This document shows, in pieces, positions 1 to 61,819 of a stretch of DNA of 64,000 nt. Within the stretch, counting starts at the first letter, position 1. Each line of letters opens with the position of its first letter. Made by a program: the position numbers and the translations under genes. Below the pieces are notes generated by a model. It searched no databases and was not told where the DNA came from. It saw nothing but the letters and a program-made list of their open reading frames with translations. The DNA comes from Candidatus Saccharimonadia bacterium (GTDB lineage Bacteria > Patescibacteriota > Saccharimonadia > UBA4664), in NCBI GenBank assembly GCA_041743505.1, contig JBGTMQ010000015.1, forward strand, positions 13,531-77,530, read 5' to 3'.

Positions 1-17
1 AAATTAGCTCCAGTTTC

Positions 18-1775
18 ATGTTCGCCCTCATCGTATTAGAGCGCGCCTTCGACGGCATCATCCTCGGCGTCATAGGTCTAGCCCTCCTCCTGTATCCCGG
101 CCTATTACCAGACGAGATCCGCGATGCCGTCGCGCTCTTCTCCGGCCTGCTACTACTAGTCGCCGCCCTGCTGATCACGCTGCTGGTACTCCTTTACCGC
201 CAAGACGCCAAACTGCTCCGGTTCTGGCACCGCTTTACCAGCATCTTCAATAACCAACTCAAAAACAGCCTGCGCTTCAAGCTCTGGTCGGTCATCTACG
301 GCCTTCACAAAGTCATCAACCGCCGTGCCATCGCCCTCTATGCCATCCGTTCGGCTGCCATGTGGGCAGCCTATCTGGCAGCGTTGATGATCCTAGCCAG
401 CTACTTCTTCCCGTATCAACTGGGCAATAATTTCTTGCAGGCCTTTATTTCCTTCCTTGGCGTGTCAATTCCATCTGGCCCGGCCTACCTCGGCTCTTAC
501 CAGGCCGTGGCCGACCCGCTGTTCCAAATCCTCGCCCCCGGTGAAGGCGCCACCCATTGGCTCGTAGCTTCCTGGATGCTGCTCGCTATCCCATCCTCCA
601 TCCTCGGCGCCGCCCTATTGCTCCGCCACCGCACCGACTACGGCAAACTCCTAGCTTCCAAAGGCAAGGATAGCCTCCATGACAAACTGGCTCGCATTGA
701 AGATACCAGCCAGGAATTCACCGCGTTCCTGGACGCCTACTTCAGCCGAAACACCCTGTCGCATGTTCTCCACCGCCTGGAAATAAACGAGGACATTCGA
801 CTCATCCGCTATTTCAAGGGCGGCTCAGACGCGGTCACGCTACTGGCCCACCAAAACCAGGATTATCTGGTCAAAAAAATTGTCCCTATCCAGTACGCCC
901 ACAGGCTTAAGGCCCAATACGAATGGCTCAAGAAACATGCTCACTTGGAGAAGATAGTCAGCGTCACGGACGAGCGGGAAGGCAAAGATTTCTACTATAT
1001 CGACATCGAATACCATGCCGACCTCATCCCGTTCTTTGACTACATTCATGCCAACAGTCTTGACCGGAGCAAGGAGGTACTGTCGGGCATATTCCGGTAT
1101 TTATTCAACTATGTCTACGAGCTCGAACCTAAAAAACGACACATCGAAGACGTTGAAACCTACATAAGAAACAAAGTCATCCAAAAACTCGACGACGCCA
1201 GTCACCGCAATCTGGAACTGGCCCGGCTACGGGATTATGACAAACTCATAATCAATGGGGTAGAGTACGACAATATCCATGTGGTACTCAACAAAATCCA
1301 CCACACCCCGCATATCTGGAAAGACATCACCACTTACCGTCAGAGCCCAATTCACGGTGACACCCAGGTCGATAACATGCTGGTATCAACCACCGACCAC
1401 TCGTTCAAAATCATCGACCCCGTCGATCAAAACGAGGTCTCCAGCCCGGTTGTCGATTTTGGCCGCATGTTCCAATCGCTCAACTATGGTTATGAGTTCC
1501 TCTGCCGGGAAGACGCACCGGTCATCCCTGACGGTAATGTCATCAGCTTCGAAGACAGCACCTCCGCCGCCTACCGCGAGCTGTACGACCACTGCCGCCT
1601 GGTAGCCCAAGACCTGCTCGAACCCGAAGAATTCCGGTCCGTACTCTTCCACACCGCCGTCCACTACAGCCGCATGTCTACCCACCGGGTCCAGATCAAC
1701 CCCCGTAATGTCGCCAAATTCTACGGCACCTCAGTCCGCGCCTTCAATGATTTTCTGGCCCAGTACAAGGATTAG
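18..1775 (+). CDS. Membrane flippase-like domain (lysylphosphatidylglycerol-synthase-type TM region) fused to a C-terminal APH/choline-kinase-like phosphotransferase domain; 5' end may lie upstream of the window
   Basis: N-terminal about 200 aa polytopic hydrophobic region. C-terminal kinase motifs IHGDTQVDNML (HGDxxxxN) and IIDPVD. No in-frame stop between window start and the first ATG. Confidence 0.6.
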   Translation: MFALIVLERAFDGIILGVIGLALLLYPGLLPDEIRDAVALFSGLLLLVAALLITLLVLLYRQDAKLLRFWHRFTSIFNNQLKNSLRFKLWSVIYGLHKVINRRAIALYAIRSAAMWAAYLAALMILASYFFPYQLGNNFLQAFISFLGVSIPSGPAYLGSYQAVADPLFQILAPGEGATHWLVASWMLLAIPSSILGAALLLRHRTDYGKLLASKGKDSLHDKLARIEDTSQEFTAFLDAYFSRNTLSHVLHRLEINEDIRLIRYFKGGSDAVTLLAHQNQDYLVKKIVPIQYAHRLKAQYEWLKKHAHLEKIVSVTDEREGKDFYYIDIEYHADLIPFFDYIHANSLDRSKEVLSGIFRYLFNYVYELEPKKRHIEDVETYIRNKVIQKLDDASHRNLELARLRDYDKLIINGVEYDNIHVVLNKIHHTPHIWKDITTYRQSPIHGDTQVDNMLVSTTDHSFKIIDPVDQNEVSSPVVDFGRMFQSLNYGYEFLCREDAPVIPDGNVISFEDSTSAAYRELYDHCRLVAQDLLEPEEFRSVLFHTAVHYSRMSTHRVQINPRNVAKFYGTSVRAFNDFLAQYKD

Positions 1776-2194
1776 GCATTTTTTTTAGGGTCAAAGAAAA
1801 CATATTTTTTTCGGAACCAGAAGTTCCAGAAAAACGTCACACAAATCGCTATCAACTTGCCAATCAATGGTGCGCCTTTAACCACTTCCACCACGAAGGC
1901 AGTCACGGCCACCTGCAGGGCCAGCCCGATAACGCTCGCCACCACTACCAGCAAGAATTCCTTGTGCGCTGAGTGCGGACGGTGCTTAAACACAAACACC
2001 CGGCTCAGGTACCAGTTCAAAATAATCGCTATCACCATACTGACGGGCGTTGCGATCAGATATGAAATGCCACCCCAGATCATTGCCTGGAAAATAACAA
2101 TCTCTGAGCCTACCAATAAAATAGCAATACTAAGATAGCGCCAAAGCTCAGGCGTGAGACGGGCGGTGAATAAGGAGAAAAATTTCTTAAGCAT
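1772..2194 (-). CDS. GtrA-family polysaccharide biosynthesis membrane protein
   Basis: 140 aa, 4 TM helices, typical GtrA-like layout and conserved basic C-terminus. Converges on and overlaps the stop of the previous gene. Confidence 0.8.
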   Translation of the reverse strand: MLKKFFSLFTARLTPELWRYLSIAILLVGSEIVIFQAMIWGGISYLIATPVSMVIAIILNWYLSRVFVFKHRPHSAHKEFLLVVVASVIGLALQVAVTAFVVEVVKGAPLIGKLIAICVTFFWNFWFRKKYVFFDPKKNA

Positions 2195-2340
2195 ATAAGC
2201 GAGTATAAAGCTACAATTCTAAAAGTACCTAACAGCTGGCGTCATTGACATCTTGTCAGCCAATAATTACGCTCAAACGGAGCCAAGCTAATAAAAGGCT
2301 CCAGATACAAATTACTACCACTCTCCAGGAGGACACTCGC

Positions 2341-2715
2341 ATGCCACTGGTAACCGTTAACTATGATACGGCCAAAGTATCCGAAACCGTTATGGATCAG
2401 GTGGTAAAAATCCTGGTCGAAGGTTTAGCCAAAGCCCTTACCTCCTCCAATGACCAAGATGGCAAAGTTGTGCCAAAAGGCGTCAGAGTCTTCGTCAATG
2501 AACGAAGCCTTCTTGATTATTCAGCCTGGGACATCGACATCACAGTCATGACCAATGACCTTCCAGGGCGGCACAACCTCCAAGAACGGCTGTCACCCGT
2601 AAGTCAGTCGCTCCAGAGTCTCCTTGAGGAACAAGCTCCCGGAGTCACGCACTGCCTTTGGGCCAATCTGCATGGCCCCTTTGCCTTCTTCGATCCCACC
2701 GAAAGATTGTCATAG
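2341..2715 (+). CDS. Hypothetical protein, possibly tautomerase-superfamily-like (Met-Pro-Leu N-terminus)
   Basis: Start chosen at ATG 2341, preceded by AGGAGG SD (the ORF track started at 2245). MPLVTVNY N-terminus resembles Pro-1 tautomerases (MSAD/cis-CaaD); weak. Confidence 0.4.
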   Translation: MPLVTVNYDTAKVSETVMDQVVKILVEGLAKALTSSNDQDGKVVPKGVRVFVNERSLLDYSAWDIDITVMTNDLPGRHNLQERLSPVSQSLQSLLEEQAPGVTHCLWANLHGPFAFFDPTERLS

Positions 2716-2760
2716 GCTCGCGGTGCACCGGTGGTCGTAACGGTCACCGCCTAGTGAACA

Positions 2761-2794
2761 TTGACATAAAGTGAGATTTTTGTTATAATCTCAC
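2761..2794 (+). promoter_or_regulatory. Consensus sigma70-type promoter TTGACA-17-TATAAT with an 8-bp inverted repeat (GTGAGATT-N8-AATCTCAC) spanning the spacer and -10: candidate operator
   Basis: TTGACA at 2761-2766, TATAAT at 2784-2789, IR arms at 2771-2778 and 2787-2794. Sits upstream of the GTG-initiated DUF218 gene, which has a GAGAGGA SD. Confidence 0.55.
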
Positions 2795-2831
2795 AGTTTA
2801 GTACCTTCCCGCTCTACAGAGAGGATGCGTT

Positions 2832-3473
2832 GTGGACGCGTCAGATTTGGAGCTTTACCGCTGTATGTTCCGATATGTCTCATCGGACGTGGCACAGCCG
2901 CAGGATCAGTTCAAGACCACCAATGCGGCTTTCGTCTTCGGACGCCAAGACCGGCTGGTCGCTGAAGCAGCCGCACCACTGTGGCACAACGGCCGGGTCG
3001 AGCGAGTCTTGATCACCGGCGGCATCGGCAAAGACTCCGGCAACTTGTCCGCCGAGGCTGGCGACAGCGAAGCCGGTTGGCTCGCCGATCAGATGGTGTT
3101 GCTCGGGGTAAGCCGCGAGCACATCATCGTTGAGCCCAGGGCTTCCAACGGCGGCGAGAACTGCCGCTTCGGTCTCGATACCCTCGCAGCCGCCATTGGG
3201 CAGTTCGGATCTCTCATCGTGGTCGCCCACGCCACCTCGCTGCGCCGCCTGGGCGCCATGCTGTACGATGAGCTGAACCACCGCAACCTGAGTGTCACAC
3301 TCCAGCTCGTTCCCAGCGCCTACCGGTTTGACCCCGAGAATGCCACCGACCGCGACGAGGTGGTAGCCGAAATCAAGCGGCTCCACGAATGGCCACACAA
3401 GATCGGCGGCGATGGCCGGCCGTTCCTGTCCCCCCAGCCACCCGTTCCGGCTCAGTTCCTGCGCTTTCTGTAA
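2832..3473 (+). CDS. DUF218/YdcF(ElyC/SanA)-like protein
   Basis: 213 aa, GTG start, Rossmann-like DUF218 core (VLITGGIG, ...IVEPRASNGGEN). The antisense ORF 2880-3542 is rejected as a shadow ORF. Confidence 0.6.
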   Translation: MDASDLELYRCMFRYVSSDVAQPQDQFKTTNAAFVFGRQDRLVAEAAAPLWHNGRVERVLITGGIGKDSGNLSAEAGDSEAGWLADQMVLLGVSREHIIVEPRASNGGENCRFGLDTLAAAIGQFGSLIVVAHATSLRRLGAMLYDELNHRNLSVTLQLVPSAYRFDPENATDRDEVVAEIKRLHEWPHKIGGDGRPFLSPQPPVPAQFLRFL

Positions 3474-3498
3474 GCAGTCCCAACCGTTAACCCAACAG

Positions 3499-3540
3499 GC
3501 CCGGCGAGTCGTTCGACTCCGCCGGGCCCTATTTCGTCTC
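3499..3540 (+). terminator. GC-rich hairpin terminator between convergent genes
   Basis: ggcccggcgagtc / gactccgccgggcc stem followed by ctatttcgtctc. Confidence 0.45.
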
Positions 3541-3556
3541 ATGCTACTTAAAGAGC

Positions 3557-4309
3557 TTAACTCGGCTCAACAGTGTGCCCGACGTACTCCTCCAGCTCCT
3601 CAGGAGTGCCAAACGAGTGGAATTCATCAACCGGCGCGGTCAACACTTTACCACCATCTCTCAGGATGATGTTGTACACAAATGAAATATAGTACTCCTT
3701 CATCACATCCGACAGCGGCTGCTTCAGGAGCTCCTCGGTGCCCTTAGCAAACGTCTCGGCCTTAGCAAAAAAATAAGCTCCCCAGATAGCATTATTAGAA
3801 ATAACCTGCTTCTCAGCTGTCCGGATCACGTATCCGTCCTCATCAGTCTCGGCGTAACTGTAGCGGGGGTTGTCGGAGTTAAACGTCAACAGACCGGCCG
3901 CAATATCGCTCTGTCCGGATAAGACATCCGTAGCCATTTTATTGTAACCCTCGCTCGAAAACCAAAAATCACAGTCCATAATAACCACCGGATCTCCCGG
4001 TGTTAGCTGCGAATAGGCCATCAGGGCGGTTTCGGCTGCCCCACGGGTCAACTCGGGAATAATCACCACGTTAGCCACCGGCAGCGCATCCGTTATCAGC
4101 TTATCGAGCTCATAAGCGTCCACGTGCTCCTGACGAATCACAAATGTAAACGTCTTGTCGGCCTCAATGTGGTCAAAGCTACTAATAGCCTTCAAAAACA
4201 TCGCCTGACCGTCAATCGGAATTAATGGCTTAGGAGTAGTGAATCCGGCTTTAGTAAATCGTGAACCAAGTCCGCCCATGGGCATAAGGATTTGAAGTTT
4301 CTTTGACAT
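3557..4309 (-). CDS. Sugar-phosphate or head-group nucleotidyltransferase (NTP_transferase / LicC-like)
   Basis: N-terminal MPMGGLGSRF nucleotide-binding motif, 250 aa. Confidence 0.75.
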   Translation of the reverse strand: MSKKLQILMPMGGLGSRFTKAGFTTPKPLIPIDGQAMFLKAISSFDHIEADKTFTFVIRQEHVDAYELDKLITDALPVANVVIIPELTRGAAETALMAYSQLTPGDPVVIMDCDFWFSSEGYNKMATDVLSGQSDIAAGLLTFNSDNPRYSYAETDEDGYVIRTAEKQVISNNAIWGAYFFAKAETFAKGTEELLKQPLSDVMKEYYISFVYNIILRDGGKVLTAPVDEFHSFGTPEELEEYVGHTVEPS

Positions 4310-4312
4310 AGT

Positions 4313-5086
4313 TTAAGTCGCCTTTGTTGAAGTATATTGTTCTGGTGTGCGCGTGGGATAGCTTAACAGGCCAAACCGCCATTTGAGTAGCTGTAACCCG
4401 GCCGTCTTCCCGATTTTAAAGTTACGGGCGTTGCTGACTTGGTCTTCCTCGCTCCAGGTAATAGGCAGGTAAACCAGCTTTGCGTGCTTAGTGTAGAACC
4501 CAAGCAGAAGGTCAAAGTTAAAGGTCAAAGCGTCCGCGTATCCCAGATAGGCGTGGTCAGACAAGGCACTGAGTTTAAACAGGTTCAAGCCAGAGCCAAG
4601 GTCACGTACCCGTTGGCCAATGAGCACGGTGTAGAAAATATTCAGCGCCTGATTGCCCAAAATCCGCTTCTGGTCATACCCAACCAGCTTGGAGCCTTCC
4701 ATAAACCGCGTACCCAAAAACGCATCAACCGTTGGGTCCTTCTCGGCCGCATCAAGCAAATTATTCAACTCACTGGTCTCAGCCTGGTCATCACCATGTA
4801 AAATGGCCACATAATCCATACCCAGCCGTTCTCCGGACAAAAAAGCCACTTTATGAGTCCCGCCGAGGTTATAATTGGCATCATTACGCCAAACCTCAAC
4901 CTTAGGACTATTCAACTGCTTAGCAGCAGCCTGAGCAGCCTCAACTGTACCGTCTTTGCTGCCGTTATCTATAACGACAACTTTCTCCACCCGGTCCAAT
5001 AATGCCTTATCAAAACCGGCGAGCACCCGGCCAATCTGCTTTGCGCAATTATACGCGGGAATAGCAACCAGCACTTTCATATCCAT
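4313..5086 (-). CDS. Family 2 glycosyltransferase
   Basis: VAIPAYNCAKQI...VVIDNGSKDGT, HGDD motif; 257 aa. Tandem with the nucleotidyltransferase. Confidence 0.8.
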   Translation of the reverse strand: MDMKVLVAIPAYNCAKQIGRVLAGFDKALLDRVEKVVVIDNGSKDGTVEAAQAAAKQLNSPKVEVWRNDANYNLGGTHKVAFLSGERLGMDYVAILHGDDQAETSELNNLLDAAEKDPTVDAFLGTRFMEGSKLVGYDQKRILGNQALNIFYTVLIGQRVRDLGSGLNLFKLSALSDHAYLGYADALTFNFDLLLGFYTKHAKLVYLPITWSEEDQVSNARNFKIGKTAGLQLLKWRFGLLSYPTRTPEQYTSTKAT

Positions 5087-5117
5087 CTCCTTTGCTCACA
5101 TCTTAATATAACCCCTT

Positions 5118-5154
5118 GCAAAGCAAAAGCCCGCTCCCTTCTCAGGGAGCGGGC
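5118..5154 (-). terminator. Intrinsic terminator for the IMPase gene
   Basis: 11-bp stem gcccgctccct/agggagcgggc, followed on the minus strand by TTTTGCTTTGC. Confidence 0.6.
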
Positions 5155-5179
5155 ATTCGGCAAACTGGCGCCGGTTATC

Positions 5180-6124
5180 TCAGACAAAACTGTTCATGAT
5201 CATCCTATGGAGCCAGTCAAGCGACTCTGGGCTATTCGCCGTCAGGAGCATGTCATAGCTATGCGTGTCCAGAGGATCACACCGGCGAAGCGTCCGGTCC
5301 GGGTTGACGTGTAGTCCAACAGCCGCACCGCCTGCCCGGATCACGTGCAGCGCCGCCGCACAGTCAAACGAACCACCCATGGCCGCCGTCAGCGAGCCTA
5401 CGATCCCCTTGGGGCTGTTGCGCTGCTGCATACCATCGGCCACCAGCGACTGGTGCAGGCCATTCGAAGCCAGGCTGTTGATGCCGATCCGGCCCTGTAG
5501 GGCTTCGAACAGCCGGTTCAGTCCCTCGCGCGACCAAACATCCTTGGTGCCGCCATGAGCGCTAAACGGCCGTAGCAGGTCAATCAGGAAAACGCCCTTC
5601 GAAGGGTCGATTTTGCCATTCCAAACCTGGCATGGCCGGGTCAGTAGCGGCGAATCGCCGAGCCTAGGCCCGAAAGCCAGGAGCTCGCAACCGACGTCGT
5701 CTGCCACCCGGATCTTGCCGGTCAGCGGATCACCCGTTACCGCACAAACCACCCGGTTCACCTTGCGGTCGTACAGGACCAGAATTACCACCGAACCCGG
5801 CGCGCCGATACCAAGTAGCAACGTGCCGTCGACTGGGTCAAGCTCAGCCATGAACCGCGCATTCGGATCAATTCGCGTCCAACCACCCTCCTCGCGGAGG
5901 ATTGGCAGGTCGCCGAGATGTCGGCGCAGCACACCTGTAGCCGCTGCTTCACTCTCCCGGTCAACGACCGTCACCAATGTCTGGTCGGCCTCCTTGATCT
6001 CCGAATTATCGATCGTCCGCAGCCCACATTGGTATGGCTGCATCACCCTCATCGAGGCCAGGGCCGCTTCAATTGCGGCCGACCTAAACTCCCGGATCAT
6101 CAGAGCTCCAATTGCCAGGTACAT
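5180..6124 (-). CDS. Inositol-monophosphatase-family phosphatase (IMPase/CysQ/HisN-like)
   Basis: ELDPVDGT and WDCAAALHVIRAGG motifs; 314 aa. Confidence 0.7.
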   Translation of the reverse strand: MYLAIGALMIREFRSAAIEAALASMRVMQPYQCGLRTIDNSEIKEADQTLVTVVDRESEAAATGVLRRHLGDLPILREEGGWTRIDPNARFMAELDPVDGTLLLGIGAPGSVVILVLYDRKVNRVVCAVTGDPLTGKIRVADDVGCELLAFGPRLGDSPLLTRPCQVWNGKIDPSKGVFLIDLLRPFSAHGGTKDVWSREGLNRLFEALQGRIGINSLASNGLHQSLVADGMQQRNSPKGIVGSLTAAMGGSFDCAAALHVIRAGGAAVGLHVNPDRTLRRCDPLDTHSYDMLLTANSPESLDWLHRMIMNSFV

Positions 6125-6227: not shown

Positions 6228-7088
6228 CTAAACAGCGTATGCTAGCGCCGTAGTTAGCTCCTCAAGTGCCGCCCTACTTTTGGCCACAATCATCAGATCG
6301 TGCTTAAGCACGTCGAGCGGGTCGTGCTCGGTCAGGCGGCCGTCTTTGTCCATCGCAAAGCCACAGGCGGCGCCACCGGCTTCGAGAACAAGCAATACCC
6401 CGCCACAATCCCAGGCACCACCTACGGCGGTCGTTACCGCCCCTGCCACATCGGGGCTTCCGTTGGCGACCAGTGCGTGGTGTAAGCCATTAGAGCCATA
6501 GCTCTTTATACTCGCCTGGGTATGCAACTGGCAAAAGAGCCTGGCATAGTTATCATCGGTCAGGATAGTGCGCCCATTGCGAGTGAAAGCACTGAAACGG
6601 TCAATCATCAGAGTGCTAGACGGCCGCATATCGCCGTCCCAGACCCGGCATGACTGCTCAGTTTGTCCAATAGTCAATGTGCAGCCATGTCCGCGAACCG
6701 CACTCCAGATACGGCCGGTAGCGGGTGCGGCTATAACTACCGCCACCACCTGGCAGAATTCCCGGTCATAGAGGGAGGCAATAATGGTACTAGTGGCAGC
6801 TCCAGCTACCAGTGACCTTGTGCCGTCCACCGGGTCAATCAATATAACGTAGCGGCCATCATGACCGGCCAGTAAACCGGCCTCTTCCCGCAAAATCGGG
6901 ACGTCCGGAAATTCCTCCCGCAGATGCTCAGTGATGATCCTCTCCGACTCACTGTCAACAGGGGTTAGCAACGAGCCGTCATCTTTTATTACAACCCGGC
7001 CTCTCCAGACATCGTGTTGATGAGCTACCACCATTCTGGAGGCCAGCTTAAGAGCACCTCCAGCTATCGCCACAAACCTTTGCTCCAC
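6228..7088 (-). CDS. Inositol-monophosphatase-family phosphatase, paralog of the adjacent gene
   Basis: ILIDPVDGT and AWDCGGVLLVLEAGGA motifs; 286 aa. Confidence 0.75.
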   Translation of the reverse strand: MEQRFVAIAGGALKLASRMVVAHQHDVWRGRVVIKDDGSLLTPVDSESERIITEHLREEFPDVPILREEAGLLAGHDGRYVILIDPVDGTRSLVAGAATSTIIASLYDREFCQVVAVVIAAPATGRIWSAVRGHGCTLTIGQTEQSCRVWDGDMRPSSTLMIDRFSAFTRNGRTILTDDNYARLFCQLHTQASIKSYGSNGLHHALVANGSPDVAGAVTTAVGGAWDCGGVLLVLEAGGAACGFAMDKDGRLTEHDPLDVLKHDLMIVAKSRAALEELTTALAYAV

Positions 7089-7726: not shown

Positions 7727-9466
7727 CTAGTAAACCGGATTGTACCCGCCACCGTATGCCCGGCTGTTGCCACGGTAGAAGTCGCTTACCTTCTGTGGTT
7801 GCCCGCCATCAACCGACACCACGTACAAGGCATTCTCGCCCGACTTAGTAGAGCTAAATACTATGTACTTATTGCTATACCACTGCACAAACTGGTTCAC
7901 CGAGCCAAGGTTGGTCAACCGGCGCTCGTTATCGCCATCGTGATCCGTCACGTAGAGCTCGGAGCGCCCGTCACGCTCGTCCACAAACACCGCTAGCTTC
8001 TCGTTCAATGATTCATTGTACGCCCGGTTTGAGATCGTGCTGGGGCCGCTATCTAGCTTGCTAACCACCAGGTTGCCCAGGTTAAGATTCTGCCACACCT
8101 GTGGCTTAGGCAGGTTGTGATTATAATAAACCAGCTGAATCGTTTCCTTGGCTTTCCGCGACACCTGCGAAGCCGGCGTCTCACTCATCCGTCGCTTACC
8201 GGCCCCGTCAGCCTTAATCGCGTACAGGCCGTCGCTATCAGAGTTCGTGCCACTCACCGAGTACAACACCACGTCATCGTAAACCGTATTGATAGTGGGG
8301 CAGACTGCTCCCGAGCCCGCAGCCACCGTCGATCCCCGCGCCCCGGCCACATAGTAAGCCTTGATACTATTGCAGCTCTGCGCATTCGGCTTCTGATAAA
8401 CCAAATAATCCTTGACCCAAGTTCGGTAATTCCCAAACTCAAACCCGTCCTCAACTTTGGTCAGCTTCTTGGTATCACCATTGAATATAAACAAGTCCTG
8501 AATCGGGTTGCCGTACTTATCCCGCCGGCCCTCCCGGCTCGATACAATGGCCACTAAGTCGGGCTGCTCAATACTGGGCAAAATACCGGTCTGCTCATCT
8601 TCCTTGCCGGTGCCGGCCAAAACTACCTGTGACTCCGTCCCATCCAGTCGGCTGGAATACATATCAATCCGGCCGCTGCGGTTAGACAAAAAGTAAACAT
8701 TACCGCTCGGCACCAACGCGACCTTATATGGCTTGGCGGTATCCTTAACCTCGATATCCACCGTCGCGTCGTGGTAGCCTTCTTTTGCCAACTTAGCCTT
8801 GACCCTCAAATCACCCCCCGGCAATAGAGCCAGCCGCAACTGACCGCCCTTACTCACCGCCTGACTGTCACCCGCCTCAACCGTCGCATCATCCAGCTTC
8901 TTGCCGCTGATCTTGTCCGTCACTTCAAAGCTAATATTAATCCCAGCGCTCACCAAACTAACCGGCTCAAACTTCGGCCGCCCAATCGGCACCAGCACCT
9001 GTTGAGTACTCGTCTTGTAAGCCTTCTTCGAAATAGTCAGGGTGCTTTTGCCCAGCTTTAGCCCGTTAAACTCGGCCGTACCGTGGTTATCCGTCGTCGT
9101 GCTTTGACCGGCCAGGGATACCGCAGCATTCGACAGCGGCTGCTTCGTCACCGAATCAATCACCTTTATATCGGCGCTGTTTTTATACACCAAGCCCACC
9201 ACCGGATACCGCAAACCAGTAGCCGCGATCACGCCGGTTACCAGCACCAATAGCCCAACTCCAATAGCAATCGTCTTGCCCTTGGTCGTACCCAACCAGG
9301 ACTTAAACCGTTCCCATCGCCCGCTTTTCACCTCACCATCAGACTCATCGGCCTCTTCCGCCTTCGCATCAGCCACTGTTTCCGGCTCAACTTCAGCTAC
9401 CTTCTCAGGCTCCGCCGCTACCGCATCTTGATCATCAGACGTCTGGGACTCTTCTTGGTTCTTCAT
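7727..9466 (-). CDS. Membrane-anchored surface protein with PD40/TolB-like beta-propeller repeats
   Basis: Acidic N-terminus, one TM helix, carboxypeptidase-regulatory-like region, C-terminal repeats (RSELYVTDHDGDNERRLTNLG; GENALYVVSVDGGQPQKVS). Confidence 0.55.
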   Translation of the reverse strand: MKNQEESQTSDDQDAVAAEPEKVAEVEPETVADAKAEEADESDGEVKSGRWERFKSWLGTTKGKTIAIGVGLLVLVTGVIAATGLRYPVVGLVYKNSADIKVIDSVTKQPLSNAAVSLAGQSTTTDNHGTAEFNGLKLGKSTLTISKKAYKTSTQQVLVPIGRPKFEPVSLVSAGINISFEVTDKISGKKLDDATVEAGDSQAVSKGGQLRLALLPGGDLRVKAKLAKEGYHDATVDIEVKDTAKPYKVALVPSGNVYFLSNRSGRIDMYSSRLDGTESQVVLAGTGKEDEQTGILPSIEQPDLVAIVSSREGRRDKYGNPIQDLFIFNGDTKKLTKVEDGFEFGNYRTWVKDYLVYQKPNAQSCNSIKAYYVAGARGSTVAAGSGAVCPTINTVYDDVVLYSVSGTNSDSDGLYAIKADGAGKRRMSETPASQVSRKAKETIQLVYYNHNLPKPQVWQNLNLGNLVVSKLDSGPSTISNRAYNESLNEKLAVFVDERDGRSELYVTDHDGDNERRLTNLGSVNQFVQWYSNKYIVFSSTKSGENALYVVSVDGGQPQKVSDFYRGNSRAYGGGYNPVY

Positions 9467-60389: not shown

Positions 60390-60527
60390 ATATTGGTTTC
60401 GTTAAAATTCTGATAATAACCTTACCCTAAGCGGGCCTATTCCTGCAAATTATTTGCATAAGCAGCCTTAAATGCAAAAAAATCAGTATGCTATCATATA
60501 TAAGTACAAGCTTAACAACTAATTCAA

Positions 60528-60685
60528 ATATCACGAACGCGGCGAGGGACCTAGCCCTGCGACCCGCTAGCAACCCTGGTTTATTTACCAGAAGGTGCTT
60601 CGTCTAGCCCGCCTCAACGGGAGAGATATACCACACTGTTAAGCAGTTTGGCCTTTCTCCTCGTGTACTCGTGAGAAAGGTTTTT
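60528..60685 (+). promoter_or_regulatory. SAM-I riboswitch with terminator/SD-sequestering expression platform
   Basis: P1 AUAUC/GAUAU (60528-60532/60625-60629); GAGGGA, GCCC, GCAACC; P3 CUGG-UUUAUUUA-CCAG; AAGGUGC; P4 CCCG/CGGG. Terminator cctttctc...gagaaagg + TTTTT (60653-60685) contains the metK SD. Confidence 0.75.
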
Positions 60686-61819
60686 ATGTCACAGACCAAA
60701 CTCTTTACCTCAGAATCAGTCGCCGCCGGCCACCCCGATAAAATTTGCGACCAAATCAGCGATGCCATCCTGGACGCCATGCTGGCCCAGGACCCCTACT
60801 CCCACGGCGCCGTGGAAGCGGTAGTTGGCGGAGATCATGTCTTCCTCGTGGGCGAGGTCAACACCAAGGCCAAGGTCGATTTTGCGGAGGTCGCCCGCCA
60901 GGTTATTCGAGGCCTAGGCTACACCGAGCCAAAATGGGGCTTCTCAGACCAGTCAACCATCAAGAGCATCTTGCACCAGCAGTCACCCGAAATCGCCATG
61001 GGTGTCGACGCCGAAGGCGCCGGCGACCAGGGCATGATGTTTGGCTACGCCTGCCGCGAAACCCCCGAGCTAATGCCCCTGCCCATCACGCTGGCCCATC
61101 AGCTCACCCGGAAGCTCGACCAGGTCCGCGAAAACGGCGAATCGTCCTGGCTCCGGCCCGACGGCAAGTCCCAGGTAACCGTGCGCTACGAAAACGATCA
61201 GCCGGTGGCCGTAGAAACCGTCGTTATGGCCGTCGCCCACAGCGAGGATATGTCGGCCGAACAGGTCCGTGACCTCGTCATCGCCAAAGTTATCCGCCCC
61301 GTCCTGGAGCGCTACGGCTACGAGGTCAAAGACGGCCAGATCATCATCAACGGCACCGGCCTGTGGCACATCCCTGGTCCGGAGTCAGACGCCGGCCTGA
61401 CCGGCCGCAAGATCGTTGTGGACGGCTACGGCGGCTATGCCCGGGTCGGCGGCGGCGCCTTCAGTGGCAAGGAGCCCAGCAAAGTTGACCGCTCCGGCGC
61501 CTACGCCGCCCGCTACATCGCCAAAAACATCGTCGCCGCCGGCCTGGCCGACCGCTGCGAAATGGGCCTAGCCTACGTCATCGGCCGCCCGCGCCCCGTC
61601 ATGGAGCAAATCGAAACCTTTGGCACCGCCAAGGCCAGCCAAGACGAGCTCAACAAATTCACCGCCAACCTCATCGACACCTCGGTCACCGGCATCATTA
61701 AAGCCCTCGACCTGCGCCGGCCCATCTACCAAGCCACCGCTGCCTACGGCCACTTCGGCCGCGATGAATTCCCCTGGGAGCAAGTCGTAGAGGCCAAAGT
61801 CCCCGCCGCCAAAAAATGA
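60686..61819 (+). CDS. metK: S-adenosylmethionine synthetase
   Basis: MSQTKLFTSESVAAGHPDKICDQISDA...; start trimmed to ATG 60686. Confidence 0.95.
   Translation: MSQTKLFTSESVAAGHPDKICDQISDAILDAMLAQDPYSHGAVEAVVGGDHVFLVGEVNTKAKVDFAEVARQVIRGLGYTEPKWGFSDQSTIKSILHQQSPEIAMGVDAEGAGDQGMMFGYACRETPELMPLPITLAHQLTRKLDQVRENGESSWLRPDGKSQVTVRYENDQPVAVETVVMAVAHSEDMSAEQVRDLVIAKVIRPVLERYGYEVKDGQIIINGTGLWHIPGPESDAGLTGRKIVVDGYGGYARVGGGAFSGKEPSKVDRSGAYAARYIAKNIVAAGLADRCEMGLAYVIGRPRPVMEQIETFGTAKASQDELNKFTANLIDTSVTGIIKALDLRRPIYQATAAYGHFGRDEFPWEQVVEAKVPAAKK

Follow-up and report, generated by a model that had tools for sequence, protein, structure and literature searches.

A membrane domain-kinase fusion protein at the center of a conserved gene cassette proposed to glycosylate the cell surface in Patescibacteria and other phyla

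We analyzed a stretch of 64,000 nucleotides (nt) from a Candidatus Saccharimonadia bacterium (assembly GCA_041743505.1, contig JBGTMQ010000015.1, positions 13,531 to 77,530 of the forward strand), hereafter called the window. At its left edge is a gene whose product joins a polytopic membrane domain of the PF03706 type (MprF flippase/PplT/UPF0104) to a phosphotransferase domain of the APH/choline-kinase fold. Neighboring genes encode a small GtrA-family membrane protein, a DUF218 protein, a sugar-1-phosphate-type nucleotidyltransferase (NTase) and a soluble family 2 glycosyltransferase (GT2), and a HAD hydrolase gene lies just outside the window (Table 1). The cassette formed around the fusion gene is widespread and uncharacterized. 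An original prediction from the sequence had described the fusion of a PF03706-type membrane region to a kinase with HGDxxxxN and IDxxD motifs, the convergent GtrA gene, the DUF218 gene, an NTase with an MPMGGLGSRF loop and the GT2; the fusion was borne out by Pfam, motifs and fold, and the other genes by Pfam matches.

Table 1. Features of the fusion-gene locus in window coordinates and, in the last rows, related features elsewhere (L and P numbers are our handles for loci and proteins)
Feature	Position (nt) or locus	Strand	Evidence or remarks
Fusion gene, open reading frame (ORF)	18..1775	+	Membrane part then kinase part; stop codon 1773-1775
PF03706 (MprF flippase/PplT/UPF0104) membrane domain, C-terminal two thirds	1..626	+	Pfam profile
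Fusion-specific connecting segment, P0001 residues ~319-380	627..812	+	Conserved motifs
Kinase-domain core (APH/choline-kinase fold)	813..1775	+	Motifs, AlphaFold2 model, Foldseek
Gly-rich loop FKGGSDA	813-833	+	Kinase motif
VKKI with N-lobe Lys	870-881	+	Kinase motif
HGDTQVDN catalytic loop	1353-1376	+	Kinase motif
IIDPVD with metal-binding Asp	1410-1427	+	Kinase motif
QSLNYGYEF	1473-1499	+	Family-specific motif, consensus QSLxxGYEFL
GtrA/DPMS-TM small membrane protein, 140 aa	1772..2194	-	PF04138, 70.6 bits
Small ORF, 124 aa	2341..2715	+	No family match
Sigma-70-type promoter TTGACA-17-TGnTATAAT of DUF218 gene	2761-2789	+	12/12 consensus positions
Inverted repeat, possible operator	2771-2794		8-bp arms
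DUF218 (YdcF/SanA/ElyC-type) protein	2832..3473	+	PF02698, 43.3 bits
Sugar-1-phosphate-type NTase, 250 aa	3557..4309	-	PF00483, 33.1 bits
Soluble GT2, 257 aa	4313..5086	-	PF00535 Glycos_transf_2, 56.8 bits
Intrinsic-terminator-like hairpin	5129..5154	-	11 pairs, 9 GC, then T run
Inositol-monophosphatase-family gene 1	5180-6124	-	PF00459, 33.7 bits
Inositol-monophosphatase-family gene 2	6228-7088	-	PF00459, 96.2 bits
S-adenosylmethionine (SAM, S-box) riboswitch	60525-60632	+	53.4 bits; directly before ORF 60671-61819
Stand-alone kinase homologues (318-335 aa)	L139:8001-9008; L140:8001-8957; L141:8001-8957		Clusters rich in radical-SAM genes
Second fusion subfamily, examples	L113, L121, L125 and similar human-gut contigs; P0266 (Clostridium butyricum)		SAGSNATTML loop
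Conserved gene pair near cassette	L001:2787-5698; L006, L007, L013-L015, L018, others		Most Patescibacteria loci and two Blastococcus loci

The fusion ORF is cut by the window edge, a truncation that the original prediction had missed, because nt 1-17 hold no in-frame stop (the frame is open from nt 3) and the Pfam match to PF03706 (LPG_synthase_TM) begins at profile position 110. The full-length protein found in public contigs, P0001, has 700 amino acids (aa), is 100% identical to the window fragment and carries 115 residues encoded upstream of the window. PF03706 scores 43.8 bits on the fragment (cut-off 33.4) and 91.1 bits on P0001, where it covers profile positions 2-283 of 302, and it is matched by all 43 of the full-length relatives (33-72% identity to P0001) that served as our conservation sample. 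By these profile matches the N-terminal region is homologous to the MprF-type flippase family, as had been predicted, and by analogy we infer lipid translocation as its activity. An AlphaFold2 (AF2) model of the whole protein, built with an alignment of relatives supplied, has a predicted local distance difference test score (pLDDT) of 89.5 and a predicted template modeling score (pTM) of 0.78. The membrane part, residues 2-318, is modeled with high pLDDT as a bundle of 11 helices of at least 11 residues and one short helix, against about 8 transmembrane helices, with both ends in the cytoplasm, in the general description of the family. The kinase part should be cytoplasmic, because basic residues cluster both at the N-terminus and after the last helix of the membrane domain, and because one family member, P0028 (897 aa), is a triple fusion of HAD, PF03706 and kinase with the HAD at the N-terminus.

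K402, D582 and P583 of the kinase part, its Gly-rich FKGGS and the family-specific QSLxxGYEFL are invariant or nearly so among the 43 relatives. In the catalytic loop, with consensus IHGDxTVDN, G562, D563 and N568 are invariant and H561 is present in at least 90%. A kinase-only AF2 model has a pLDDT of 88.5. Foldseek comparison to the PDB returned protein-kinase-like folds exclusively; the top match of the isolated kinase domain was the pneumococcal choline kinase LicA (4r7b; E 9.5e-7, TM-score 0.60), with further matches to fructosamine-3-kinase (3jr1; TM-score 0.60) and APH(2'')-Ia (TM-score 0.57). As a comparison of modeled folds, this does not separate the candidate substrates of the kinase. 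A domain search had been proposed to find APH (PF01636); in this protein the match stays below the threshold of 23.2 bits (12.1 bits, E 0.17) and is confined to the catalytic loop, but 28 of the 43 relatives match at E <= 0.1, the best at 1.3e-8. No significant sequence match was returned when the kinase domain or a 43-member profile was compared to all PDB chains, only insignificant matches to the catalytic loop, and NCBIfam holds no model for the fusion protein. We thus identify the domain as a kinase because of its fold, its conserved motifs and the APH matches of its relatives, and its sequence features are those of a divergent, catalytically intact-looking member of the APH/choline-kinase fold that forms a sister family and is not a typical APH. 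A pseudokinase was considered and is ruled out by the retained catalytic Lys, HGDxxxxN and IDP motifs.

Using only the kinase domain as query, we searched exhaustively and found 589 representatives (50%-identity clusters) at E <= 1e-3, of which 161 were found at E <= 1e-30. Most representatives are 620-740 aa long with the kinase at the C-terminus, and the fusion is, in this sequence survey, the dominant architecture of the family. The fusion had been called unusual in the original prediction; it is instead the standard form of a large family, and fusions of PF03706 with "phosphotransferases" and "dehalogenase-like hydrolases" have already been named, unstudied, among the rarer "PplT" architectures (Hauser et al., bioRxiv 10.1101/2022.03.11.483950). 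Genome and metagenome scans placed members of the family in Patescibacteria (Saccharibacteria, Gracili-, Doudna-, Roizman- and Moranbacteria), Actinomycetota (Geodermatophilaceae, Pseudokineococcus, Leifsonia, Naasia) and Myxococcota (Myxococcus eversor, M. dinghuensis, Pyxidicoccus), as well as in Spirochaeta aurantia (SpaG), Clostridium butyricum and relatives, and many human-gut metagenome contigs. A second fusion subfamily of ~620-730 aa, marked by an SAGSNATTML loop, is often met in metagenomes from the human gut, whose GC contents range from 26% to 62%, and is also present in Clostridium butyricum. The literature on PF03706/TIGR00374, on SpaG and Spirochaeta aurantia and on Saccharibacteria glycan loci yielded no functional study of the family.

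The gene neighborhood was scanned with profiles of the window genes and of the HAD against six-frame ORFs of 138 loci. Collapsing kinases of more than 80% identity and requiring at least 4 kb on both sides left a non-redundant set of 50 loci, all with fusions. Within 4 kb of the fusion gene, an NTase was found in 48 of the 50, a GT2 in 47 and a HAD in 45, the last directly adjacent and on the same strand in 42; all three occurred jointly in 42. GtrA was found within this distance in 32 loci and a large polytopic membrane protein in 23. The order of genes differs among lineages. In Actinomycetota it is YfhO-like, GtrA, HAD, fusion, GT2, NTase; in the ~640-aa gut/Clostridium subfamily it is GT2, NTase, fusion, HAD, frequently with GtrA next; and the Myxococcota cassette consists only of HAD, fusion, NTase and GT2. 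Linkage that survives rearrangement across phyla is strong evidence, at the level of sequence, that the cassette genes share a function. The kinase had been expected to be degenerate and to have no conserved neighbors if the original prediction was wrong; its motifs are kept, and it is linked to NTase, GT2 and HAD.

The HAD gene (189 aa) was seen on the longer contig, with an overlap of 11 nt into the start of the fusion gene. It belongs to the beta-phosphoglucomutase (beta-PGM)/YqaB subfamily, and its top match among solved structures is TM_1254 (E 1.9e-21), a sugar-phosphate phosphatase, with beta-PGMs next. When aligned to the L. lactis beta-PGM, the KGVSR and SASKN cap motifs are not conserved in register, and the sequence evidence leans towards a phosphatase rather than a mutase. 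P0028 constitutes Rosetta-stone evidence, again from sequence, that would place this phosphatase at the same membrane hub as the kinase. In this genome and in relatives, the cassette sits among dTDP-rhamnose genes and genes for WsaF-like and GT2 glycosyltransferases, with a Wzm/Wzt ABC exporter in some, and judged by these genes the region is a wall-polysaccharide region. Polytopic proteins of 638 and 569 aa are encoded upstream of the cassette in this genome, outside the window. The Modestobacter operon has the order YfhO-GtrA-HAD-fusion-GT2-NTase, and its YfhO-like match scores 31.7 bits and covers the C-terminal part only; large membrane proteins homologous to it occupy the same position in other Actinomycetota loci. 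Neither the HAD partner nor the large polytopic neighbors had been noticed in the original prediction.

The membrane and kinase domains are joined by a connecting segment with the motifs NKLxRxEDIS (here DKLARIED, nt 681-704) and FLDxYF, in which K338, L339, R341, D344, F352 and L353 are invariant in the 43 relatives. In the AF2 model its confidence is lower, with block means of 59-88. The segment presumably serves to dock the kinase onto the membrane domain. Stand-alone homologues of the kinase begin ~14 residues before the KGGS loop and lack the connecting segment. The metagenome scan seeded with stand-alone kinases returned mostly fusions, and most of its apparent "kinase-only" genes were cut at contig ends; the genuine ones, soluble proteins of 318-337 aa that keep the same motifs, were established separately. 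The stand-alone kinase gene directly precedes an NTase gene in L140 and L141, with a 4-nt overlap, and also in L069, and directly precedes a GT2 gene in L139. The persistence of the kinase-NTase pair without the membrane domain argues, from gene order, that the product of the kinase feeds the NTase and that its substrate is soluble. The L139-L141 clusters also contain a gene for a DegT aminotransferase and between four and eight genes of the radical-SAM or B12-radical-SAM type, and have the look of a route to an amino sugar with many modifications.

The NTase and the GT2 form an operon in the window, in which the GT2 gene ends 3 nt before the start of the NTase gene, the second of the two. The NTase starts with MSKKLQILMPMGGLGSRF and has the MPMGGLGSRF loop. 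Its top PDB sequence match is an uncharacterized NDP-sugar pyrophosphorylase, 4evw (E 4.5e-17), and it has weak matches to the GlmU N-terminal domain, to long RmlA and to HddC. The enzyme had been described as LicC-like, which holds at the level of the fold; a specific relation to LicC does not, as the PDB matches at E <= 0.01 comprised 4evw and one ADP-glucose pyrophosphorylase-family protein and not LicC. The top NCBIfam models for the GT2 are AglJ (45.7 bits), PpgS (32.9 bits) and a halobacterial dolichyl-phosphate hexose transferase, all far below their equivalog cut-offs. In the PDB it matches the dolichol monophosphate mannose synthase (DPMS) of Pyrococcus, 5mlz, over residues 2-212; the GT2 domain of a chondroitin synthase scores slightly higher, but over residues 5-120 only. 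AglJ, PpgS, dolichyl-phosphate hexose transferase and DPMS load sugars onto polyprenyl phosphates. The GtrA gene is convergent with the fusion gene, and their 3' ends share 4 nt. As the Pfam family name indicates, GtrA proteins have the same fold as the membrane domain of DPMS, and we propose that the GtrA protein is the membrane partner of the soluble GT2, a flippase for polyprenyl-phosphate sugars, or both.

Around these genes are others that vary with lineage. The consensus promoter and operator-like repeat predicted for the DUF218 gene are present: the promoter is the sole perfect site within nt 1700-5300, and the inverted repeat GTGAGATT..AATCTCAC, which spans the promoter spacer and the -10 box, is, on sequence, a possible operator. 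DUF218 was found near the fusion gene in 6 of the 50 non-redundant loci and, among the first 58 loci, only in Patescibacteria-type (candidate-phyla-radiation) ones; by this distribution it accompanies the cassette as an accessory specific to the Patescibacteria lineage. The small ORF between the GtrA and DUF218 genes has no Pfam or NCBIfam match, occurs among the loci only in L001 and L002, two nearly identical contigs, and probably does not belong to the cassette. The two inositol-monophosphatase (IMPase)-family genes are tandem, divergent paralogues, both with DPxDGT; FD replaces WD in the second motif of the first paralogue. The hairpin lies between the IMPase-family gene and the GT2-NTase operon, which are therefore separate transcription units. 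IMPase-family genes recur beside the cassette in Patescibacteria-type loci (L005/L009, L006, L012, L013, L027, L036, L056) and in the metagenome locus L060, and none was seen in the Actinomycetota or Myxococcota loci examined. They possibly encode accessory sugar-phosphate phosphatases. The DUF218 gene, both IMPase-family genes and a cupin gene of the window, which recur in Patescibacteria alone or nowhere, are accessories to the cassette. A conserved gene pair found near the cassette encodes a secreted or anchored protein (~400-770 aa; 773 aa in L001) that matches no family and a ~190-aa single-pass membrane protein with a weak Cei-like match. A SAM riboswitch lies far downstream in the window.

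We observed the domain identities, the retention of catalytic motifs, the fold and the tight gene linkage across phyla, and the reading we hold with somewhat more confidence than doubt is that the cassette is a self-contained transmembrane glycosylation system, with the fusion protein as its membrane hub, in which a private nucleoside diphosphate (NDP)-sugar is made, linked to a lipid and flipped. A sugar as the substrate, polyprenyl phosphate as the lipid acceptor, the flipping and the sequence in which the three phospho-handling enzymes act are inferred from homology and linkage. In the cytoplasm, the beta-PGM/YqaB-type HAD, the APH-fold kinase and the NTase would turn a common sugar phosphate or a scavenged sugar into the private NDP-sugar, without a phosphomutase. 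The characterized sugar kinases of the APH fold, NahK, AmgK, Mak and MtnK, phosphorylate the anomeric position. The steps might run from phosphatase to anomeric kinase to NTase, as in the MupP-AmgK-MurU pathway (PMC5371407, PMC5371409), or from kinase to phosphatase to NTase, as in HddA/HldE-GmhB-HddC. The soluble DPMS/AglJ-like GT2, with GtrA, would then transfer the sugar onto polyprenyl phosphate, and the PF03706 domain, with the kinase rigidly docked, would bring the lipid-linked sugar to the outer leaflet. Archaeal glycosylation offers precedents in which PF03706 domains are fused to or encoded beside GT2 and STT3/PMT-like enzymes (PMC5898192), and the transport domain of MprF is a promiscuous lipid scramblase to which the attached enzyme gives specificity (PMC11980842). 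A large polytopic transferase, YfhO-like in Actinomycetota, would finally attach the sugar to a wall or surface glycopolymer, which in this genome is probably a rhamnose-containing polymer encoded on both sides of the cassette. The original idea of a head group activated by a kinase and an NTase and destined for a surface glycopolymer fits both the conserved neighborhood and the stand-alone kinase-NTase pairs.

Several points weigh against this glycosylation reading. No solved kinase matches this one significantly in sequence, which is why the label "sugar kinase" is taken from gene context, and no experimentally studied member of the family was found in the searchable literature. The HAD may be a mutase even without the exact beta-PGM cap motifs. 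The 638- and 569-aa membrane proteins of this genome match no Pfam or NCBIfam family, GT-C families included, and hhalign found no relation between them and the YfhO-like proteins (probability 0.3%); in the Myxococcota loci, neither GtrA nor a large membrane partner was detected nearby. If the partners of PF03706 are normally lipid-modifying enzymes (PMC11980842), the GT2 would be the expected partner, not a kinase for a soluble sugar. Furthermore, with GtrA present, itself a proposed flippase, PF03706 would be redundant in that role.

The main rival makes a lipid, held in the cytoplasmic cavity of PF03706 before translocation, the substrate of the kinase and possibly of the HAD; the reaction would add a phosphate to, or remove it from, the head group of a polyprenyl-phosphate sugar or glycolipid, or would phosphorylate polyprenol, and the NTase and GT2 would use an ordinary sugar-1-phosphate. 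It draws on the characterized PF03706 partners, which are lipid-modifying enzymes whose specificity is thought to come from local concentration (PMC11980842; PMC5898192). The connecting segment, conserved and specific to the fusions, together with the pTM of the whole-protein model, suggests a fixed geometry and not a loose tether, and in P0028 a HAD occupies the other cytoplasmic end. We nevertheless regard it as unlikely: the soluble homologues keep the motifs and are encoded directly upstream of an NTase in places where no PF03706 gene was called in the vicinity, phosphorylation and dephosphorylation of one lipid would cancel each other unless different positions were involved, and no lipid kinase is known to have such a fold and context. 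Just as slim is the chance that phosphoryl transfer is mechanistically coupled to transbilayer movement, with the kinase, and the HAD beside or fused to the other cytoplasmic end, acting on a substrate in the PF03706 cavity, be it a lipid-linked sugar, polyprenol or a molecule on its way through the domain. If true, the fusion would be without precedent as a kinase-gated lipid translocator or, in an import version, a group translocation outside the phosphotransferase system (PTS), and such coupling would span from episymbiotic Patescibacteria to gut Clostridia.

The three other alternatives are less likely than a lipid-directed kinase. As proposed for GpgSDF and HexSDF, the GT2 might glycosylate a phospholipid or diacylglycerol and PF03706 might flip the resulting glycolipid, with HAD, kinase and NTase still supplying the donor. 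The studied stand-alone PF03706 partners GpgF and HexF do belong to glycolipid operons (PMC12713373; PMC10128005), and the Myxococcota cassette, near which neither GtrA nor a large membrane protein was detected, would suit such a pathway. We think it improbable, given that the GT2 here is DPMS/AglJ/PpgS-like whereas GpgS is a GT4 (PMC12713373), that GtrA accompanies most of the non-redundant loci and a YfhO-like protein shares the Actinomycetota operon, and that there is no deacetylase partner. In a scheme of transport-coupled salvage, PF03706 would import an external sugar, or dock an importer, and the kinase would trap it by phosphorylation, analogous to LicB and LicA. The passage from kinase to NTase fits the LicA/LicC and AmgK/MurU salvage pathways, and many carriers are Patescibacteria, reduced-genome episymbionts that rely on scavenging; but PF03706 proteins that move a soluble substrate are not known in the literature (bioRxiv 10.1101/2022.03.11.483950; PMC5898192; PMC11980842), an obligatory phosphatase is hard to fit into pure uptake and trapping, and the same cassette is found in free-living Actinomycetota and Myxococcota, which leaves salvage quite improbable. 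The last alternative, drawn from the resemblance to LicA and LicC noted in the original prediction, is activation of a non-sugar head group such as phosphocholine for attachment to a glycopolymer. In structure the kinase domain matches LicA best, and its gene is linked to that of an enzyme of the NTP_transferase family, but APH(2'') and fructosamine-3-kinase match equally well, LicC is outside the significant PDB matches of the NTase, and the LicD and LicB families are not among the Pfam-annotated neighbors in eight loci (six distinct regions) and the window ORFs to nt 9466. Conserved in their place are a GT2, an enzyme that transfers glycosyl groups from NDP-sugars, and a HAD of the sugar-phosphatase type. 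We therefore abandon the phosphocholine-type head group as very improbable.

GtrA is assumed to be the flippase of polyprenyl-phosphate sugars in three-component systems, and a cassette with an MprF-type domain beside GtrA could let the two candidates be told apart genetically. The cassette is a compact, portable module of four to six genes that appears to create a dedicated nucleotide-sugar pool and to bring it to the cell surface. Its carriers include bacteria of the candidate phyla radiation, Saccharibacteria among them, which attach to hosts by way of their surface glycans, as well as soil Actinomycetota, Myxococcota, Clostridium butyricum and uncultured human-gut bacteria. Identification of the sugar would annotate several hundred proteins that are now misnamed "lysylphosphatidylglycerol synthase domain-containing".

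Among known systems, the cassette most resembles the multi-component transmembrane glycosylation systems, namely GtrA/GtrB/GtrV of enterobacterial phages, CsbB/GtcA/YfhO and GtlA/GtlB of Bacillus and Listeria, PpgS/Rv3632 of mycobacteria and GacI/J/K/L of streptococci. Like these, it pairs a DPMS-like GT2 with a GtrA-family membrane protein, includes a YfhO-like polytopic protein in the same operon in Actinomycetota, and lies within a cell-wall polysaccharide region with rhamnose genes, a WsaF-like glycosyltransferase and an ABC exporter. Unlike the characterized members, it has its own three-enzyme donor supply (HAD, kinase and NTase) and a kinase-fused PF03706 translocator domain, and its GT2 falls well short of all equivalog cut-offs. 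By its PF03706 score of 91 bits, the membrane domain is a homologue of those in MprF, PplT/YbhN, GpgF, HexF and the C-terminus of archaeal AglD, which are beside or fused to an enzyme of surface lipids or glycans. The nearest analogue is AglD, a GT2 and PF03706 fusion next to an STT3/PMT-like enzyme (PMC5898192). In contrast to MprF and AglD, the fused enzyme here is a phosphotransferase of the protein-kinase fold and not an aminoacyl-phosphatidylglycerol synthase or a glycosyltransferase, and the glycosyltransferase of the cassette, unlike that of AglD, is a separate soluble protein. LicA and LicC share the kinase fold and the kinase-then-NTase logic; the cassette differs from them in having a GT2 and a sugar-type HAD in place of LicB and LicD, and sequence similarity to them is insignificant. 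The same enzyme classes, a HAD phosphatase, a kinase and an NTase, bypass a phosphomutase in MupP-AmgK-MurU and in HddA/HldE-GmhB-HddC, and AmgK has the APH fold, as does the cassette kinase. Orthology to MupP-AmgK-MurU is not indicated: the MupP model gives 32.8 bits where its cut-off is 359, the MurU model reaches E 9e-4 with the Modestobacter NTase only, and HddC reaches only E about 1e-3. Unlike MupP-AmgK-MurU, the cassette has its kinase anchored in the membrane, and its product would enter lipid-linked glycosylation, not peptidoglycan or the lipopolysaccharide core.

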